Virus record (IMG/VR): IMGVR_UViG_3300011772_000022
Coordinates: 1 to 16,258 of that record
DNA from: a virus
Lineage: Duplodnaviria > Heunggongvirae > Uroviricota > Caudoviricetes
DNA length: 16,258 nt
Direction: 5' to 3' (one strand)
This document shows, one piece after another, positions 1 through 7,755 of this stretch; the first letter of the stretch is position 1, and the number at the start of each line of letters is the position of its first letter. A model generated the notes under the pieces. It was not told the DNA's origin and searched no databases. It saw nothing but the letters and a program-made list of their open reading frames with translations. Made by a program: the position numbers and the translations under genes.

Positions 1-223
1 AATTGTCCTCTTCCCATCGTCCTAAGGAAAGTGTGGAGTCCAGAATGACATGTTTATCGTCCATAAATTCCGTTGTACGGTGGATTGCATCAATTTCTTG
101 CTGCTGATATCGATGTCCAAGGCTTGCATAAACAAGTTTTGGGTTACAGTCGAATGTATCTCGTAAGTAGAAGTAAGCAATATATGAATCTAGTCCACCT
201 GAGTAAAGTAAAACATCAACCAT
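1..223 (-). CDS. queC: 7-cyano-7-deazaguanine (preQ0) synthase QueC-like PP-loop ATPase, 5' part only (runs off the left edge; not in ORF track)
   Basis: Manual translation from ATG at 223: MVDVLLYSGGLDSYIAYFYLRDTFDCNPKLVYASLGHRYQQQEIDAIHRTTEFMDDKHVILDSTLSLGRWEEDN..., open to position 1. PP-loop SGGLDS at the N-terminus; RBS-like GTAGGTGA upstream; overlaps the stop of 216..881; same cluster as queD and queE. Confidence 0.8.
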   Translation of the reverse strand, partial: MVDVLLYSGGLDSYIAYFYLRDTFDCNPKLVYASLGHRYQQQEIDAIHRTTEFMDDKHVILDSTLSLGRWEEDN

Positions 224-881
224 TCTGTTCACCTACCCAAGTATCCGGAACATCTGCTAAAATCTCTCGCACGTCTTCAATTCCACTCGGGAATCTAACT
301 GGATTGTTTGATGATAATGCTTCCCGTGACAGTTGACGAACCGCTTCTGTCAGGACACGTTTTTCATTATGTTGCTCATTAATCGTATCTTGATAAGATT
401 TGATATCATCTTCCGCTACCGCCCATCGACGTTTTAGATACGTAAGAGTCTCCTGCATTCCAGAAACAACGTCAACTGCTTCCTTATATTTGGATTCATA
501 ATGGTCTTTTAGATTCGACATCTTCGTTAGGTCCATATCTAGCTTACCCTTAGCCGTTTCAAGCGCAACCGCTTTGGCTTCTAAGTCCATGAAATGACCA
601 TGTAGCTTCTGGTATTCTGATTGAGCCTCTTCCTTTTCTCGTTTCTCCTTGTTCGTACTGCGTATAAATTCATCTACATCAGCATATAGCTTCTGATATT
701 CTGCTTGAGACGCCTCTTTTTCTTTCTTTTCCTTATTGTAGTCAGCTTCCCACTCATCGATATGTTGGTGTGCTTCCTCTAATGATGCCATAAGTTGAAC
801 ACATAACTGTTCAGGTGTCATATTCGAATACGCCAATCGTTTACGCATTTCCTGATAATATTTATTTTCGCTATTACTCAT
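216..881 (-). CDS. Hypothetical long coiled-coil protein (221 aa)
   Basis: E/K/Q-rich heptad pattern. Start reassigned from 914 to ATG 881, which has AAGGAGGAG at 888-896. Confidence 0.8.
   Translation of the reverse strand: MSNSENKYYQEMRKRLAYSNMTPEQLCVQLMASLEEAHQHIDEWEADYNKEKKEKEASQAEYQKLYADVDEFIRSTNKEKREKEEAQSEYQKLHGHFMDLEAKAVALETAKGKLDMDLTKMSNLKDHYESKYKEAVDVVSGMQETLTYLKRRWAVAEDDIKSYQDTINEQHNEKRVLTEAVRQLSREALSSNNPVRFPSGIEDVREILADVPDTWVGEQNG
603..737 (-). repeat. Imperfect internal duplication, 84-nt (28-aa) period
   Basis: 603-653 versus 687-737 on the plus strand (tagcttctgRtattctg.ttgag...), encoding NKEKREKEEAQSEYQKLH and NKEKKEKEASQAEYQKLY. Confidence 0.8.
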
Positions 882-905
882 CTTTGTCTCCTCCTTTGTT
901 ATAGG

Positions 906-932
906 AAAAGGCAACCGAATCGATTGCCTTTT
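906..932 (-). terminator. Probable intrinsic terminator (short U-tract, possibly leaky)
   Basis: Minus strand reads AAAAGGCAATCG-ATT-CGGTTGCCTTTT directly after the stop at 939. Confidence 0.65.
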
Positions 933-938
933 AGAATA

Positions 939-1172
939 TTATTTTAAGTCGCCTACATGTGATTCAGTGCCTACGATACCTTTTAAAGCATCTTTGGTAA
1001 TCTTCAGGTTCTTTTCAAGCAATTCACGTTGTTCTGCCATACCTTCTAATTCCATTTCAATTCGTTTTACACGTTCTTCTAATTGTGCACGGTCTACTGT
1101 TTCCTCTAAAACACGAGTTACCGTGAAGTGTGTTTTCTCTTTGTTTGGGCGAATGCTTACGTTGTCTCTCAT
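939..1172 (-). CDS. Hypothetical small coiled-coil protein (77 aa)
   Basis: AAGGAGGA RBS at about 1181-1188; TAATG stop/start overlap with the upstream gene. Confidence 0.8.
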   Translation of the reverse strand: MRDNVSIRPNKEKTHFTVTRVLEETVDRAQLEERVKRIEMELEGMAEQRELLEKNLKITKDALKGIVGTESHVGDLK

Positions 1173-1507
1173 TATTGTTGTCCTCCTTGTAATTGACTCA
1201 TCATTTTTTGTGCCATTGCAGCCTGAACTTCTTTTACGATTTCTTCACGCTCAAAGCGTTTACCAGTGTCTTGCATTAATTTTGACATTGCAGCAGCGTT
1301 TAACTCTTGCGCCACTTTCTCTGGGAATACTTCTTTTGCATCAATTACCTTGATGTCTTGTCCATTCAGACCGACTAATACAAATGCACCTAGTAATGCT
1401 TCGTATTGCGGTTCTCCTTCTTGTGGAGCATCATTTGCAGGTTCGTTTGGTCCTGTTGGGTCTTGCACCTTTGTTTCCTCTTGTTTTAAATCTTTTTCTT
1501 CTGCCAT
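1172..1507 (-). CDS. Hypothetical protein with acidic, Pro-rich N-terminus (111 aa)
   Basis: Start reassigned from 1675 to ATG 1507; AAGGAGGA overlaps the queE stop codon. Confidence 0.8.
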   Translation of the reverse strand: MAEEKDLKQEETKVQDPTGPNEPANDAPQEGEPQYEALLGAFVLVGLNGQDIKVIDAKEVFPEKVAQELNAAAMSKLMQDTGKRFEREEIVKEVQAAMAQKMMSQLQGGQQ

Positions 1508-1520
1508 TGTTGTTTCCTCC

Positions 1521-2264
1521 TTAACGAATTCCGTATAATTTGTGTACCTGTGGGATGAATCGAATGTCGTAATGACGTTCATCCATATAATGATGAGCAA
1601 AAGCCGTTCTGATAATGTCCGGCAGCTCTGTATAATTGTTAGCTGATTCTTCAGGTTGGAAGATGATTGGAACATACCTTGCTCCTTCTCCCGCCTTTTT
1701 GATTAATCCCGCAACCTCAACTGCATCCTCGATATGAGAGATGACAAATTTTAGTTGTAGAACACCTATTGGCATTCGATTAATCCATTTCGTCAGCATG
1801 TTCGGATTATAAGCAGGATTTCCTGAGCTTTTTAGTTTAGGAGATACCGAGAATAGCTTCACTTCGTTTTTAAGCTCTCGTCTAGGTATGATAGTACCAT
1901 TCGTTTCAAAGGTCACACCGTCGATTACCGTTCTGCGACGAAGCCTATCAAGTAATACTGCTAAGTCGGTATGATTATGCAACAGTGGTTCCCCACCAGT
2001 GATAACCAAGTCTTTAATCCGATGCTCTTCCGCTAATAACTTAATTTTTGCTTCTAGTAAGGCTAATGACATCGATGTATAAATCCCTTCGTGATACAGG
2101 TTTTCATCCCAAGAATGAGCCGTATCACACCAGACACAAGCAAGATTGCATCCGTATAAGCGAAGGAAGATTGTTTTACGTCCTATATCAGAGCCTTCTC
2201 CCTGAATTGTAGGAAATAGCTCCATGACTCTAAAAGGTTCGCCTGATTTATGTGGTTGTTTCAT
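1521..2264 (-). CDS. queE: 7-carboxy-7-deazaguanine synthase QueE (radical SAM)
   Basis: ELFPTIQGEG, CNLACVWC (CxxxCxxC), ITGGEP, ETNGT, SVSPK and C-terminal PQVHK motifs. Start reassigned to ATG 2264 (ATGA overlap, GAAGGTG RBS). Confidence 0.92.
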   Translation of the reverse strand: MKQPHKSGEPFRVMELFPTIQGEGSDIGRKTIFLRLYGCNLACVWCDTAHSWDENLYHEGIYTSMSLALLEAKIKLLAEEHRIKDLVITGGEPLLHNHTDLAVLLDRLRRRTVIDGVTFETNGTIIPRRELKNEVKLFSVSPKLKSSGNPAYNPNMLTKWINRMPIGVLQLKFVISHIEDAVEVAGLIKKAGEGARYVPIIFQPEESANNYTELPDIIRTAFAHHYMDERHYDIRFIPQVHKLYGIR

Positions 2265-2443
2265 CTTTTGCACCTTCTTTTTCTTTCTTCCCATGAGTAA
2301 ATGATTACGATTATGAAGAAGAAAATCATTGTTGGTAACCAGAGTATGTGCATAATAACTTTCATTGGTAACCCCCAAGAGTCAGGTTGGGAAAAGAAGA
2401 ACCCGACTCCAAGGTATACAAGAGCTATTATGACCCACATCAT
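2261..2443 (-). CDS. Small two-transmembrane-helix protein with basic C-terminus
   Basis: Two hydrophobic stretches followed by ERKRRCKR; ATGA-coupled to both neighbours. Confidence 0.7.
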   Translation of the reverse strand: MMWVIIALVYLGVGFFFSQPDSWGLPMKVIMHILWLPTMIFFFIIVIIYSWEERKRRCKR

Positions 2444-2859
2444 TTCTCTTCTTGCTCTTCCTTAATGGCATTTACTTCAGCCATTGGTGGGACTGTGCAA
2501 TGTACTTCATCTACTTCCAGTAGGTTAATTGGCTTTCTCACAATCTCATTTGCAGCAATATCCTCTGCTAACAAGATTGCTAGGAAGGCAAGTTCATTGA
2601 TTTGGTCCATAGCCTGCTCGAACATTTCAAATTTGTCGCCCGCTTCGTCGAGAGAACGAAGTCGTTTAGCTTTTACAAGATTACGGTCTACGAATGTAGA
2701 GTAACGGTAATCTCTCCAAGCATCCTTGTATTTACCATTACGGTCGAGAAAAATACTTTCCGCAGCAGCTAATACGATGTCCCGCTTTGTTTTTGTGTCT
2801 TCACCATTTGCGATTGATACTCCTAGTGTTGCCACCTGATTTTTCGTAAATGAATCCAT
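2440..2859 (-). CDS. DUF1599 / nucleotide-modification-associated domain 1 (Nmad1)-like all-alpha protein
   Basis: IFLDRNGKYKDAWR...STFVDRNLVKAKRLRSL...DQINELAFLAI resembles my recollection of the DUF1599 pattern (F.KK..DYG.AWR...S..D.I.IKA.R.R.L...E...IINY..MALI). RBS AAGGAGG. Not HMM-verified. Confidence 0.6.
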   Translation of the reverse strand: MDSFTKNQVATLGVSIANGEDTKTKRDIVLAAAESIFLDRNGKYKDAWRDYRYSTFVDRNLVKAKRLRSLDEAGDKFEMFEQAMDQINELAFLAILLAEDIAANEIVRKPINLLEVDEVHCTVPPMAEVNAIKEEQEEK

Positions 2860-2875
2860 TGTCTAATTCCTCCTT

Positions 2876-3502
2876 CTAATCTATGTTTACAAGAATTACT
2901 GCCGACCCTTTAACCTGAAAATCTCTTCCATCAACGGAAACCCATGCATGTTTTTCATTAGGAACCCAATATGTAGAAATTCCTTCTCGACGTTTTAGTT
3001 CCTCTGTTAAGTCAGCCGTTGAGTAAAGTGATAAAGGGTTGTCCACCTTTGCAGCAGGAAGACTCTTTTGATGAATCTCCGCATAACAAGTCGGAGTTTC
3101 ATAGAGTCTAACGAATTCAAGTAGGACGTTTTTCGGAAGATGTTTTTCCATCTCCTTATAAATCCAGTATACCAAGTTCTCAGCACTGGTGTTCATGTTA
3201 GGTAAACTTTCGTTTAAGTATCTGTGGTCCAATCTTGGCTCTAAATGTTCTTTCCATATCTTCTTAATGTCCCCGAAGTCAATTACGATTCCAATTGGGT
3301 TCGGGATACCCACCACACCGAATTGTACTCTGTAAAGGTGTCCATGCATGTTCTTACATTTACCCTCGTATGCATGAAGATGGTGGGCTGCATCGAATGT
3401 GAATTCTTTTACTACTAATGTAGGAACCACATGATATCGTAGTTCGTCTGGTTGAATATCCTCTCCATAAACCTGTGCTTTGTCTGGTACTTTGTAATCC
3501 AT
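2876..3502 (-). CDS. queD: 6-carboxy-5,6,7,8-tetrahydropterin synthase QueD with extra ~50-aa C-terminal domain
   Basis: KEFTFDAAHHL, CKNMHGH, IDFGDIK, LDHRYLN, SAENL and ETPTCYAE motifs; the ORF continues about 64 aa beyond the normal QueD end. Confidence 0.92.
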   Translation of the reverse strand: MDYKVPDKAQVYGEDIQPDELRYHVVPTLVVKEFTFDAAHHLHAYEGKCKNMHGHLYRVQFGVVGIPNPIGIVIDFGDIKKIWKEHLEPRLDHRYLNESLPNMNTSAENLVYWIYKEMEKHLPKNVLLEFVRLYETPTCYAEIHQKSLPAAKVDNPLSLYSTADLTEELKRREGISTYWVPNEKHAWVSVDGRDFQVKGSAVILVNID

Positions 3503-3521: not shown

Positions 3522-3791
3522 TTAGTTCACACGGATTTTAAATAAAATGCTTGTGCGGTCTTCCCCACTAATCTTTGTATCTTCAAAGCCCGGTACTAAC
3601 ACAAGGTCTTTTCCGGCAGGTGCCACAAATCCTCGTGCGATTGCAGTTGCTTTAACAGTCTGGTTAACTGCGCCTGCTCCAATAGCAGTCAGCTCAACTG
3701 TGTAACCTTCTTCGATGTTCTTCGCAATAGCTCCCGCTACAGAAGATGGATTGCTTGTAGATTTTACTTTTAGACGTTTGATTTCGCTCAT
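3522..3791 (-). CDS. spoVS: Stage V sporulation protein S homologue
   Basis: SNPSSVAGAIA, AIGAGAVNQTVKATAIARGFVAPAG and GEDRT closely match SpoVS along its full ~89 aa. Confidence 0.95.
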   Translation of the reverse strand: MSEIKRLKVKSTSNPSSVAGAIAKNIEEGYTVELTAIGAGAVNQTVKATAIARGFVAPAGKDLVLVPGFEDTKISGEDRTSILFKIRVN

Positions 3792-4393
3792 TTTGATTTC
3801 CCCTTTTTCTTTGGTTTTTTAAGTTTTATTTTCAATACCGTTGCCACCGCTTCTTTTTGGTGGTCTGGTAGAGATTCAATATCGAGTTCCCCTTGCTTTA
3901 CTTTCCAGACAGTCTCACAAAGGAGAGCCATACAGAAAGCATCACATTGGTCATTCTGTGCTAAAATGAAGTTCGTTCCATATCGGGCATTTACTTCTTC
4001 AACAACCCAAACCTTTTTCCATGATGTTTTTGCTCTACCTTCTGGTACAGGTGGTGTGTCTCCACGTCCACAAGCAAATTTCTTTACTGTCTTAGGTGAT
4101 GGTTTGAAGTATGGAATACCTAGTTGGTGTAGCTTATAAAGCACTACGCCGTGAATTTCTGCAAGGGTTTCTCTTCCAAAAGGGGAATCATAAGCATAAT
4201 GTTCGATAGCCACGTATTGTACCTTGTTATCTTCGATAGCCGCCAGTATTGTCTCCACAATCTTGCGTACACTTACAATCCATTCATCTTCTTTAGAGGT
4301 AGTAATGGTTCCAATGGATATTGGTTTGTAGTTTTTATTGACTGATACCCCGCTTTTTCTTAGTGAAATATCAATACCCATATATGTTGCCAT
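3788..4393 (-). CDS. RuvC-like Holliday junction resolvase
   Basis: MGIDIS (catalytic Asp), VAIE, LAEIHGVV, SPKTVKKFACGRG and NDQCDA match the RuvC acidic-residue arrangement. Confidence 0.8.
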   Translation of the reverse strand: MATYMGIDISLRKSGVSVNKNYKPISIGTITTSKEDEWIVSVRKIVETILAAIEDNKVQYVAIEHYAYDSPFGRETLAEIHGVVLYKLHQLGIPYFKPSPKTVKKFACGRGDTPPVPEGRAKTSWKKVWVVEEVNARYGTNFILAQNDQCDAFCMALLCETVWKVKQGELDIESLPDHQKEAVATVLKIKLKKPKKKGKSK

Positions 4394-5318: not shown

Positions 5319-6254
5319 TCATTTCACCTCGTCTAAGTTTTGTCTACCATCTACTTCAGCAAGCGTTAAATTATCTTTCGAGTAACATAGTGTTCTCCAA
5401 GGACAGTATTTACACTCAGCAGATTTCTTGTCATTAACAATACGTTCTGGTAGATTACCTGAATCGACAATTGCTTCCGTCGTATCCAGTTTAATGAATT
5501 GTTTATCTAAAAACGGTTGGAATAATGAGATGTTATAGTTTTTCATTTCCTGATTGTTCTTGTTTCCATAATGGAAGATACCACCGGGAATTTGTAAACC
5601 ATACATATAAATATTCGCCTGATACAGATGCTTGTCGAGAGGTTGATTCAATTTCTCGAAGTAATCTCTCGTCGCTTTCATCTCTTCAGTCCAGTTAGGT
5701 TCAGCCGCTTTAATTGTTTTGATTTCTATTACTCTCATTCCAGTAGGTGCAGTGTTATCCACTACAACACCATCGGCGTGACCTGCAATTGGTTTTCGGT
5801 CTCCTCGTAAGATTCGGACCGGAACCTCTTCATATTTGAGATTTTCCCAGATATAAAGTTTCACGTCACAATTTGGGCATCGTCTCGGTGAAGCGTTAAC
5901 CATGTCGAACCATTTATGTTCACATCGTTGACATTTCCATTTCCCGAGCAGCTTTCCCATATCCCAATAGTACCCTTGAATTTGATAACCGAAGTGATGT
6001 CCTACATCGAACAATCTACGAAGTTGCGCTCGTATCTTTTCATCGTTCGACTTTGGAGTTTTGACATGACTAAAAGCCAATCTTCGAAGACAATCCGTGG
6101 TGGATATCTCAGATGGGTGCCACACATTCTTCTCCCTATCATTCTCTTGGTCTAGGAATGGTTTCCCCTGCAATTTTAGTAGGTACCTATCCATTTCATG
6201 CCCTAGATTCTGATTGGGACTTTTTAACGTTTTCAGTAAGTCTCCTAACGCCAT
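5319..6254 (-). CDS. Solo Cas4-like PD-(D/E)XK exonuclease with Fe-S cysteines and an inserted CxxC-CxxC motif
   Basis: HPSE..C55, GHAD161G, E177IK, QANIY and C-terminal CKYCPWRTLC (1+3 Cys of the Cas4/AddB type). Confidence 0.85.
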   Translation of the reverse strand: MALGDLLKTLKSPNQNLGHEMDRYLLKLQGKPFLDQENDREKNVWHPSEISTTDCLRRLAFSHVKTPKSNDEKIRAQLRRLFDVGHHFGYQIQGYYWDMGKLLGKWKCQRCEHKWFDMVNASPRRCPNCDVKLYIWENLKYEEVPVRILRGDRKPIAGHADGVVVDNTAPTGMRVIEIKTIKAAEPNWTEEMKATRDYFEKLNQPLDKHLYQANIYMYGLQIPGGIFHYGNKNNQEMKNYNISLFQPFLDKQFIKLDTTEAIVDSGNLPERIVNDKKSAECKYCPWRTLCYSKDNLTLAEVDGRQNLDEVK

Positions 6255-6291
6255 TTTTCTCCCGCCCTTTCTGCTATGTCTATTTAATAAG

Positions 6292-6349
6292 AGTGGGGGT
6301 CGGTGGAACCCCCGGTAGAGGACGTTATATAGGCAGTATAACTCCCACT
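6292..6349 (-). other. Structured, GC-rich 5' leader element (candidate cis-regulatory RNA)
   Basis: Pairings AGTGGG/CCCACT, GTTATA/TATAAC and CGG/CCG, plus a competing GGGGGT/ACCCCC hairpin, between the promoter and the ATG at 6254. Confidence 0.5.
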
Positions 6350-6358
6350 GATATACCT

Positions 6359-6388
6359 ATTATAACAGATATAATACCATCGTGACAA
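6359..6388 (-). promoter_or_regulatory. SigmaA-type promoter for the Cas4-like...que operon
   Basis: TTGTCA (6388-6383), 18-nt spacer, extended -10 TG-T-TATAAT (6364-6359). Confidence 0.75.
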
Positions 6389-6415
6389 TTTGTTTCTCAC
6401 TATTCAGGTAATTAT

Positions 6416-6907
6416 TTATAGCTTCGTCATCTCAAGGAAAACAAGGTCATATGGATGTTTCTCATCCTTAGGTTGCATCCCGATTGTTCTACTTGCAAAT
6501 AACCTTTCTGGCTCTTCAAAGAATGTATCCCCTTCAAATTCACCATCGATAACGGTTACATAATACGTATCAATGAAAGGTTCGAATTGCTTATAGATTT
6601 CGGCTCCACCTATAACCCACATTTCTTCTAGGTACATTCGGTGTGTAGATAAGATTTCATCTACGGAATGCATTACCATAGCATCTCCTGCATCGTAATT
6701 CTCATCCCGAGTCAGAACTATATTCAATCTATCCTTCAGTGGTCCATTTGGTAACGATTCGAATGTCTTTCTCCCCATTACCACAATCCCAGTATCTTGT
6801 GTCGTCATCTTGTTGAAATGTTTCATATCGGCAGGAAGATGACCCCAAGGCATCTTCCCATCCTTCCCAATAACACCATTAACGGACATCGCTACAATCG
6901 CTCTCAT
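6416..6907 (-). CDS. folA: Dihydrofolate reductase
   Basis: IGKDGKMPW, DMKHF, VMGRKTFESL, PLKDRLNIVLTR and VIGGAEIY; TAATG-coupled to thyA. Confidence 0.95.
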   Translation of the reverse strand: MRAIVAMSVNGVIGKDGKMPWGHLPADMKHFNKMTTQDTGIVVMGRKTFESLPNGPLKDRLNIVLTRDENYDAGDAMVMHSVDEILSTHRMYLEEMWVIGGAEIYKQFEPFIDTYYVTVIDGEFEGDTFFEEPERLFASRTIGMQPKDEKHPYDLVFLEMTKL

Positions 6908-7755
6908 TACTCTGCCACCGGAATGACTATTTTACCCATTGGATTGTACTCCACCACTTTGAAATGCTCTACTCTAAAATCGTAGAAGTTTTTCACGTCT
7001 GGGTCGATTATCAATTGCGGTAATGATTGGTGTTGGAAGCCTACGTAACGACGTTTCATTTCTGCTGCTGCATCTAGGTGACGGTCATAAATGTGTAGGT
7101 CACCGATGTCATGAATCAGTTTTCCGACTCGTAAACCATTTACCTGCGCCACCATTGCCTGTAATACTGCATATTGAGCAACATTCCAGTTATTCGCAGT
7201 AATCAAATCAGAAGAGCGTTGCATTAATTTTAGATGTAATTCCCCACCTAATACTCTCCAATGAGTACCAAAAGCACAAGGTCGTAAGTTCATGTGTGGA
7301 ATATCTTCTGGTATAAAGATATTTGTCATGATTCCTCTATCCCAAGGCTTCTTACTGATATCGTACAGTACCTTATCAAACTGGTCCATCGTTCCTTCAG
7401 CGTAGTCAATTGGCTTTGCAATCTGGTAACCGTAGGCTCTTCCGATTGAACCTCTTTCATCCGCCCATTGATTCCATATCTTACTGTTTAAATCATTTAC
7501 GTTATTAGATTTTCGTTGGAAAATCCATAGAATCTCATCCACAAGTGCTTCGAAGTTCATGTCACGTAATTCAGTAAGAGGGAAAGCCTGTGATGGTCGG
7601 TATTCATTCTGATATCCGAAAATGCTCTTATAATGAGCGTCCTCTCCGTCTTTCCATTTCGTACGGACCTTCATCGTAGGCTCATTATAACTCCATATAC
7701 CATCTTTCAGTACCTTATCAATCATCTGTATTTGTATTAGGTCTGTATATGCCAT
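6907..7755 (-). CDS. thyA: Thymidylate synthase (ThyA type)
   Basis: IGRAYGYQ, catalytic RPC, QRSSD, NVAQY (dUMP-specifying Asn) and DLHIY. Confidence 0.95.
   Translation of the reverse strand: MAYTDLIQIQMIDKVLKDGIWSYNEPTMKVRTKWKDGEDAHYKSIFGYQNEYRPSQAFPLTELRDMNFEALVDEILWIFQRKSNNVNDLNSKIWNQWADERGSIGRAYGYQIAKPIDYAEGTMDQFDKVLYDISKKPWDRGIMTNIFIPEDIPHMNLRPCAFGTHWRVLGGELHLKLMQRSSDLITANNWNVAQYAVLQAMVAQVNGLRVGKLIHDIGDLHIYDRHLDAAAEMKRRYVGFQHQSLPQLIIDPDVKNFYDFRVEHFKVVEYNPMGKIVIPVAE

Follow-up and report, generated by a model that had tools for sequence, protein, structure and literature searches.

A probable phage operon for 7-deazaguanine DNA modification with a predicted intron-split dpdA gene and no folE

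7-Deazaguanine modification of DNA is an established strategy by which phages evade restriction. The DNA studied here, the first 16,258 bases of the IMG/VR record IMGVR_UViG_3300011772_000022 (called the window; the whole record, G000, is a single entry of 106,765 bp), raises the question whether a phage with an apparently incomplete set of pathway genes can nevertheless modify its DNA in this way. The window holds queD, queE and, at its very edge, a truncated open reading frame (ORF) for a PP-loop protein with an SGGLDS motif, and five other genes are interleaved with them. As noted in an earlier interpretation that used the letters of the window only (hereafter the sequence-only reading), all these genes form one co-oriented run, and neither folE nor the transglycosylase gene dpdA is present in the window; both observations are correct, but dpdA lies elsewhere in the same genome, directly after queC. 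Based on the gene content we consider it fairly probable that the locus is a phage operon for 7-deazaguanine DNA modification, in which preQ0 (7-cyano-7-deazaguanine) would be made from host-supplied 7,8-dihydroneopterin triphosphate (H2NTP) and be inserted into DNA as dPreQ0. The genes of the run within the window are as follows.

2..223, minus strand: 5' part (74 codons) of the QueC-family gene, the rest of which lies at G000:106178-106765; joined product of 236 amino acids (aa)
216..881, minus strand: orfC, coiled-coil protein of 221 aa without a Pfam or PHROG family
939..1172, minus strand: orfB, conserved small protein of 77 aa with a short strand region ahead of a coiled-coil helix
1172..1507, minus strand: orfA, conserved small protein of 111 aa, starting at M57 of a listed 167-aa ORF
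1521..2264, minus strand: queE, putative 7-carboxy-7-deazaguanine synthase of the radical S-adenosylmethionine (SAM) type, 247 aa (PHROG 2076, Radical_SAM)
2261..2443, minus strand: protein of 60 aa with two transmembrane helices (2-TM protein) and a basic tail; ATGA start/stop overlaps on both sides
2440..2859, minus strand: single-domain DUF1599 (Nmad1) protein of 139 aa (Pfam PF07659)
2876..3502, minus strand: queD, putative 6-carboxytetrahydropterin synthase with a C-terminal BC1881-family domain (approximately nucleotides 2876-3025; PTPS, TIGR03367, NF033495)

The minus strand carries every long ORF of the window, and all ORFs of the cluster are intact. The two ends of the record have 98 exact bases in common (window 1-100 versus G000:106666-106765), with one mismatch at each extreme, i.e. 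the assembly is circular or permuted, and the label of the record, 'linear, 70% complete', probably understates it. As the contig ends overlap by these 98 bp, the remainder of queC lies at the opposite end of the record, and the gene order on the minus strand across the junction reads queD (with the BC1881 domain) - DUF1599 - 2-TM - queE - orfA - orfB - orfC - queC - dpdA.

The edge ORF (2-223, ATG at 223) begins MVDVLLYSGGLDS, carries the PP-loop motif SGGLDS at residue 8 and runs off the window. Pfam QueC (PF06508) is matched with model positions 3-61 at the start of the record and 87-206 at its end, and scores 51.9-52.5 bits versus a cut-off of 22 (C-terminal part, 9e-14). The joined protein of 236 aa contains PLRN (PxRN) at 78 and the four-Cys zinc site Cx9Cx2Cx2C at 164, and shares 205 of its 236 residues (87% identity) with QueC from a sister genome in which the gene is not interrupted (L012, GCA_002049665.1; 107,890 bp, 84-88% nucleotide identity, permuted differently). 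In searches of the PDB, a profile of the QueC proteins of this clade matches Cap9 of the cyclic oligonucleotide-based antiphage signalling system (CBASS; 9nto, 3e-13), QueC from B. subtilis (3bl5, 7e-13), QueC 2pg3 (3e-12) and QatC (4.5e-5), all far above the argininosuccinate synthases, which reach 0.01 or worse. Nevertheless, the protein stays below the cut-off of 150 of the NCBIfam equivalog TIGR00364, reaching 37 bits with its C-terminal 194 aa; relatives in full length score 50-53 bits. Thus, the profile comparison of 1..223 that the sequence-only reading had proposed speaks for the QueC family, and the edge ORF can be assigned to this family, and not to another PP-loop family, as a divergent member. 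The ORF starts 7 residues ahead of the PP-loop, the gene upstream is the coiled-coil orfC, and PHROG 1550 is matched by the QueC half only; as there is no N-terminal glutamine amidotransferase domain, the protein is not a Gat-QueC, the enzyme of the pathway to deoxyarchaeosine (dG+). The QueC of another relative, L010 (L010:9059-9997; 312 aa), has a C-terminal extension of approximately 65 residues that is missing in the other members.

The sequence-only reading had suggested extending the contig leftwards to look for a transglycosylase, and indeed dpdA is found next to queC, directly downstream across the contig junction, split by an intron in this phage and intact in the sister. The gene appears as two ORFs with a LAGLIDADG ORF between them. 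PHROG 887 ('queuine tRNA-ribosyltransferase') matches both pieces (7e-25 and 2e-11), which together are collinear with uninterrupted homologues of 304-320 aa from metagenomes, with the joint at ...KYGTRVHG/FAIT.... Conceptual splicing, with the predicted junction ...CACGGTT/TTGCCATC..., yields a protein of 302 aa, 292 of which (97%) are identical to the intronless DpdA of the sister. An AlphaFold2 (AF2) model of the intronless homologue P0003 (73% identical) has a predicted local distance difference test (pLDDT) score of 80 and a predicted template modelling (pTM) score of 0.79. tRNA-guanine transglycosylases (TGTs) fill the top 16 matches of this model in the PDB (Foldseek E 2.7e-5, TM-score 0.57), and its neighbours in BFVD are TGT-like 'queuine tRNA-ribosyltransferases' of phages, including nt-1 DpdA2; the TGT-like triosephosphate isomerase (TIM)-barrel fold is thus predicted from this relative rather than from the spliced phage protein. 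Moreover, an alignment of the clade's DpdA proteins matches the N-terminal 265 residues of YP_007005872 from phage BCD7 (hhalign, 99.9% probability, E 2e-31), a protein that is listed in the DpdA column beside FolE, QueD, QueE and QueC (Hutinet 2019, PMC6884629, Supplementary Data 1). The phage gene is therefore predicted to encode a TGT-fold DNA transglycosylase homologous to BCD7 DpdA. Exon 1 found no match among GenBank phages by tblastn, and a pattern scan of IMG/VR with it returned nothing.

The insert that splits dpdA is located as follows.

G000:104753-105628: group I intron of 876 nt in dpdA, carrying the LAGLIDADG ORF

This insert has the features of a group I intron that is predicted to be spliceable and to restore the reading frame exactly. 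The 5' exon ends in a U paired with a G in P1 and the intron has a terminal G; the internal guide sequence of P1 co-varies with the third position of a Gly codon in four genomes, and the helices P3, P5, P6, P7, P8, P9 and P9.1 show compensatory changes. The insertion site lies after the H-G of an HGF motif, beside invariant active-site residues. The endonuclease ORF (627 nt) is located in the loop of P8, and the end of its coding sequence overlaps the elements P8', J8/7 and P7' of the ribozyme core. The intron contains, 32 nt upstream of the LAGLIDADG ORF, a σ70-type consensus with 12/12 matches (TTGACA-18-TATAAT; minus strand, G000:105483-105512, i.e. L001:13484-13513), which suggests that the endonuclease has a promoter of its own. 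The intron copy of this phage gave no match to Rfam RF00028 at E<=10, neither as a whole nor with the 5' part alone, and this is probably attributable to the 627-nt ORF in P8 and not to the lack of an intron: an ORF-less copy of 326 nt at the identical site in L010 (L010:10545-10870), which shares the 5' and 3' core sequences with the ORF-containing one, scores 88 bits on RF00028 versus a cut-off of 50. Thus, intronless, ORF-less and endonuclease-bearing alleles of dpdA are all present in the clade. In the literature we found no paper that reports an intron in dpdA or links a queuine tRNA-ribosyltransferase with an intron. As a separate observation, the thymidylate synthase gene of L007, L008 and L009 (136-1603) is split by an insert with an I-TevI-like ORF (NUMOD3 / I-TevI DNA-binding), which has the look of a td-type intron and was not detected by Rfam at the gathering threshold; ThyA in the window (6907-7755) is uninterrupted.

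Another protein of the dpdA neighbourhood bears on the architecture of the transglycosylase.

G000:102959-103573 (L001:10960-11574): Cys-motif protein of 204 aa, three genes after dpdA

It contains a CxxC...C...C motif, CDQCYLIDKCPHY...C, and with 97.5% identity to the sister copy it is the best conserved protein of the neighbourhood. It aligns to residues 598-730 of the 757-aa BCD7 DpdA (96.5% probability, E 9e-10), and as the same domain is fused to DpdA in BCD7, the Cys-motif protein probably works with DpdA. A complex prediction for the sister DpdA and the Cys-motif protein gave a score of 0.00 with a poorly folded partner and is evidence neither way. The gene, the third piece matched by PHROG 887, was also considered as a third dpdA exon, which was rejected, since the uninterrupted homologues end at piece 2 and it is a separate gene in all relatives.

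The two enzymes at the other end of the cluster can be assigned with different firmness. QueD matches Pfam PTPS (7e-34, 116.8 bits versus a cut-off of 22.4), exceeds the cut-off of the NCBIfam equivalog TIGR03367 (92.6 versus 89.25 bits) and contains the QueD signature CxxxHGH (...GKCKNMHGHLY...), in place of which DpdL has LxxxHRHxF (Cui 2023, PMC10516641). Its C-terminal approximately 50 residues form a BC1881 domain (NF033495, 39 bits versus a cut-off of 27, residues 160-208; PHROG 5765), a fusion shared with the sister (208 aa), whereas QueD of the other relatives is unfused and comprises 156-158 aa. QueE matches the QueE-like PHROG 2076 (1e-43) and Pfam Radical_SAM (7e-13, 49.6 bits), contains the CxxxCxxC cluster of radical SAM enzymes (GCNLACVWC), and its five best NCBIfam matches are all QueE models, but the best of them, TIGR03365, reaches 85.6 bits versus an equivalog cut-off of 206. 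With 57% identity to QueE of the relatives it is best described as a divergent member of the family. The true start of queE is M39 of the listed ORF, giving ATGA overlaps with its neighbours.

The wider genome search that the sequence-only reading had called for was successful for dpdA, but not for folE, queF or arcS: the genome contains no match to FolE (PF01227) or FolE2 (PF02649) at E<=1, no member of the QueF or ArcS families and no canonical TGT (Pfam PF01702) at E<=1, a model matched by 14/14 control genomes. In the relatives L005, L007, L010 and L011, a PF01227 FolE is located between orfB and queC, the order being RuvC-SpoVS-queD-DUF1599-queE-orfA-orfB-folE-queC-dpdA. In this phage and the sister L012 the slot is filled by orfC, which argues for a real and stable loss of folE; the order RuvC-SpoVS-queD is kept in all relatives. 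The phage would thus rely on the GTP cyclohydrolase I of its host, which is present in Bacillus; the B. subtilis control genome contains both FolE types. Since there is neither QueF nor an amidotransferase, preQ0 is the expected end product, to be inserted as dPreQ0.

Taken together, we propose the following route. With the phage folE lost, host GTP cyclohydrolase I would supply H2NTP, which QueD would convert to 6-carboxytetrahydropterin (CPH4), QueE CPH4 to 7-carboxy-7-deazaguanine (CDG), and the divergent QueC-family enzyme CDG to preQ0. The dpdA pre-mRNA would be spliced through its own group I intron, and DpdA, with the Cys-motif protein as its probable partner, would then exchange guanine for preQ0 in the double-stranded phage DNA after replication; the resulting dPreQ0 would block restriction enzymes. 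The identities and order of the genes, the boundaries and structure of the intron, the absence of folE and the conservation are read from the sequences, whereas we infer that the host supplies H2NTP, that preQ0 is the base finally inserted, that DNA is the target and that the Cys-motif protein acts as a partner. The claim of the sequence-only reading that the phage modifies its DNA with a 7-deazaguanine is still a prediction, but it gains strength from a dpdA after queC that is predicted to be spliceable and is intact in the sister.

Several points weigh against this proposal. QueC and QueE are divergent, each far under its NCBIfam equivalog cut-off, and the QueC-family profile is as near to CBASS Cap9 as to QueC, so that a product other than preQ0 is conceivable. 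Profile searches with the DpdA family yield no match to a Pfam or NCBIfam model or to a PDB sequence, and DpdA has no recognisable zinc site of its own. The loss of folE makes the pathway dependent on the host. Finally, restriction sites are strikingly rare in the whole 106.8-kb genome, with GATC found 0 times versus 385 expected, GGCC 0 versus 115 and CGCG 1 versus 90, and CCWGG, CTGCAG and AAGCTT are absent altogether. We regard this site avoidance as a second, independent anti-restriction trait, but it may be the main anti-restriction strategy in place of modification.

The first of these points leads to the alternative that survives best, i.e. that the pathway acts on DNA but the base is not preQ0 but 7-amido-7-deazaguanine (ADG), CDG or an undescribed derivative, either because the divergent QueC makes another product or because one of the genes DUF1599, orfA and orfB contributes a further step. 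The 37-53 bits of the QueC-like proteins on TIGR00364 versus a cut-off of 150, together with a clade profile equidistant from Cap9 and QueC, are in line with this idea, as are the proposal of a QueC homologue as ADG synthase and the shifts in DpdA substrate preference (Cui 2023, PMC10516641). The three uncharacterised genes are, moreover, conserved within the cluster in six genomes. Yet every QueC signature motif is kept, the homologous cluster of BCD7 manages without DUF1599, orfA and orfB, and no known tailoring enzyme is encoded, QueF and ArcS being absent from the genome. As DUF1599 also has no conserved acidic motif of catalytic appearance, and orfA and orfB encode small helical proteins, we consider a different base unlikely.

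The interleaved genes differ in their conservation. DUF1599, orfA and orfB keep their position in all six related genomes, DUF1599 being located between queD and queE in 6/6, whereas the 2-TM gene and orfC are shared with the sister L012 only, the 2-TM gene being absent from the four more distant relatives. A crude ratio of nonsynonymous to synonymous polymorphism (pN/pS) versus the sister is 0.08-0.15 for queD, queE, the 2-TM gene (0.08) and orfB (0.15), i.e. these are real genes; the 2-TM protein has 58/60 aa identical to that of the sister at 88% nucleotide identity.

The DUF1599 protein just exceeds the Pfam cut-off (PF07659, 2e-5, 25.3 bits versus 25; marginal). The clade profile retrieves 259 representatives, most of them DUF1599 proteins with two domains and some joined to an IspD or HIT domain, and the 10 that were checked score 120-197 bits on PF07659. 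Its AF2 model is a four-helix bundle (pLDDT 87) with AF_0060 2p06 as best structural match (Foldseek E 0.1; VIA Z 7.0); MazG and HisE follow at Z 5.5-6.3, all within helical-bundle noise, and among Atlas look-alikes there is only a weak MazG lead (TM 0.41). The residues conserved throughout the family are aromatic or basic (Y44, W48, K63, R66, R68, N88), with no invariant acidic pair. A role as MazG-type pyrophosphatase thus finds no support, as the fold search does not discriminate and there is no conserved acidic motif. A role as general partner of deazaguanine clusters was rejected, as DUF1599 is found neither in BCD7 nor in Cellulophaga phi3ST:2, two deazaguanine-cluster phages in Hutinet's list. 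The nearest homologue from outside the clade adjoins genes for a primase-helicase, RusA and ThyX on a 4.5-kb contig without que genes. A tblastn search with DUF1599 gave no match among GenBank phages, and a literature search on DUF1599 and Nmad1 yielded unrelated papers only.

The proteins encoded by orfA, orfB and orfC match no family in Pfam or PHROG. OrfA is 75% identical to the corresponding ORF of the sister and has positional homologues of 81-108 aa in all relatives; in the 167-aa ORF as listed, the first 56 codons overlap queE out of frame and do not belong to orfA, and in the comparison with the sister the upstream 54 codons align to the 3' end of queE in another frame. Between queE and orfA the sister has an extra ORF of 72 aa (L012:8855-9073) where this phage has 28 nt. 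Homologues of orfB, 77-80 aa in length, occupy the same position in six genomes, and a profile search finds them in this phage clade only. OrfC shares 55% identity, with indels, with a 222-aa ORF that L012 has in this position, and an Atlas search with it retrieves generic coiled coils only; it appears to be a fast-evolving coiled coil in the folE slot of the relatives.

The sequence-only reading had regarded all five genes as candidate components of the pathway. Beyond the constant position of DUF1599, orfA and orfB this idea finds no support, as DUF1599 is missing in two deazaguanine phages, orfB is confined to the clade and orfC evolves fast; the five, all of them real genes, are most likely clade-specific passengers or accessory factors and not core enzymes. 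In a more far-reaching version, DUF1599, orfA and orfB together with the Cys-motif protein would be dedicated parts of the modification machinery, either as a chaperone or scaffold that binds nucleotides or bases and channels the free base to the zinc-less DpdA, or in tailoring, and the divergent QueC might make a product other than preQ0. We see this as a long shot, but if true, a clade of Bacillota phages would harbour an undescribed 7-deazaguanine derivative or a multi-subunit DpdA.

Still less probable, and in our view very unlikely, is a decaying relic, in which folE has been replaced, dpdA is interrupted, no modification takes place and the phage relies on site avoidance. The genome does lack folE, 876 nt do interrupt dpdA, and the avoidance of GATC and GGCC is extreme. 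However, purifying selection on queD, queE and the small genes is strong, every ORF is intact, and the intron, which shows all the hallmarks of self-splicing group I introns, restores a conserved frame. Moreover, the folE-less arrangement is stable in a sister whose dpdA is intact, and Bacillota hosts encode FolE, as judged from control genomes. That the 7-deazaguanine serves tRNA modification or a metabolic takeover, entering RNA or the queuosine pool of the host instead of phage DNA, is highly improbable: although QueD, QueE and QueC also make the precursor of tRNA queuosine and some phages have que genes without a recognised DpdA (Hutinet 2019, PMC6884629), the transglycosylase belongs with the phage DpdA proteins (by its hhalign match to BCD7 and its neighbours in BFVD) and is not a canonical TGT, Pfam TGT being absent, it has no PUA or tRNA-binding domain, and DpdA is found in every deazaguanine-modified phage (Cui 2023, PMC10516641).

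An operon for preQ0 synthesis and insertion into phage DNA thus remains our preferred explanation, and its surroundings in the window suggest how it may be transcribed and in which host. The neighbouring features are as follows.

3522-3791, minus strand: SpoVS (Pfam SpoVS, 1e-31), upstream of the cluster and co-oriented
3788-4393, minus strand: RuvC-like resolvase (RuvC, 1e-5; PHROG 159, 3e-21), upstream and co-oriented
5319-6254: Cas4-like / PD-(D/E)XK exonuclease (PHROG 1706, 4e-30; PHROG 2506, 4e-26), first gene of the presumed operon
6359..6388, minus strand: best candidate promoter for the long transcription unit with the que genes, TTGTCA-18-TATAAT, 11/12 matches with an extended -10 TG; a consensus match only

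The leader between this promoter and the first gene (6230-6420) contains a GC-rich hairpin with a weak T tail (6295-6313) and matches no Rfam riboswitch family at E<=10, the sole match being a chance snoRNA. Apart from this hairpin, no terminator-like site was found on the minus strand from the promoter to position 1, and the que genes are thus probably part of one long unit with the Cas4-like exonuclease, RuvC and SpoVS. In BCD7, a 'CRISPR/Cas system associated' gene is present in the module that corresponds to the region of the Cas4-like exonuclease. SpoVS, the BC1881 domain and BCD7 as nearest isolate point to a spore-forming member of the Bacillota as host.

Characterised examples of 7-deazaguanine DNA modification come almost all from phages of Proteobacteria and Actinobacteria and from marine phages. 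The locus would add an uncultured clade of Bacillota phages of approximately 107 kb, represented by at least 8 metagenomic contigs, with a DpdA that Pfam and NCBIfam fail to recognise. It suggests that folE can drop out of an otherwise complete phage pathway, so that predictions which require a complete FolE-QueDEC set would miss such phages, and that dpdA can host a mobile intron, in which case ORF-based annotation yields two fragments. As a worked case of annotation, it presents a pathway that a contig edge and an intron alone make look incomplete. Furthermore, the C-terminal Cys-motif domain of BCD7-type DpdA may stand as a separate gene, which is a testable lead on the architecture of DpdA.

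Among the known systems, the dPreQ0 system of Escherichia phage CAjan and the Seuratviruses (DpdA1 with FolE, QueD, QueE and QueC) is experimentally validated (Hutinet 2019, PMC6884629; PMC7544227). In that system, a phage-encoded preQ0 pathway and a DpdA bring about the post-replicative exchange of G for preQ0 in DNA, conferring protection from restriction, and the present locus is predicted to follow the same logic. CAjan differs in that its DpdA has no BLAST-detectable similarity, it has folE, its host belongs to another phylum, and there is neither an intron nor DUF1599.

With bacterial and eukaryal TGTs (Z. mobilis, T. maritima 2ash) the phage enzyme shares the TIM-barrel fold, and its DSGAF may correspond to the active-site loop DSGGFQ of TGT. 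However, the identity is approximately 11%, there is no match to Pfam TGT, the 302-aa phage protein has no C-terminal zinc subdomain, and it is predicted to act on DNA.

Mobile group I introns with genes for homing endonucleases occur in genes of several phages, e.g. td, nrdB and nrdD of T4, and in the Bacillus phages SPO1 and SPbeta. The dpdA intron resembles them in its self-splicing architecture, in the free-standing endonuclease ORF looped out from a peripheral helix (P8 here), in its insertion beside invariant active-site residues and in its patchy presence among close relatives, but differs in its host gene, which is dpdA.

The closest counterpart is BCD7 (NC_019515), likewise a Bacillus-group phage of similar size with SpoVS upstream, in which queD (56% identical), queE and queC are accompanied by a DpdA of this family and for which dPreQ0 is predicted as the product, too. 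BCD7, however, keeps folE, has none of DUF1599, orfA, orfB, orfC and the 2-TM gene, and its DpdA is one protein of 757 aa with the Cys-motif domain fused at the C-terminus, whereas here this domain has a gene to itself and an intron interrupts dpdA. By its genes, the locus may thus be regarded as a divergent relative of the BCD7-type system, distinguished by its lost folE, the intron that splits dpdA and a Cys-motif domain encoded apart from DpdA.

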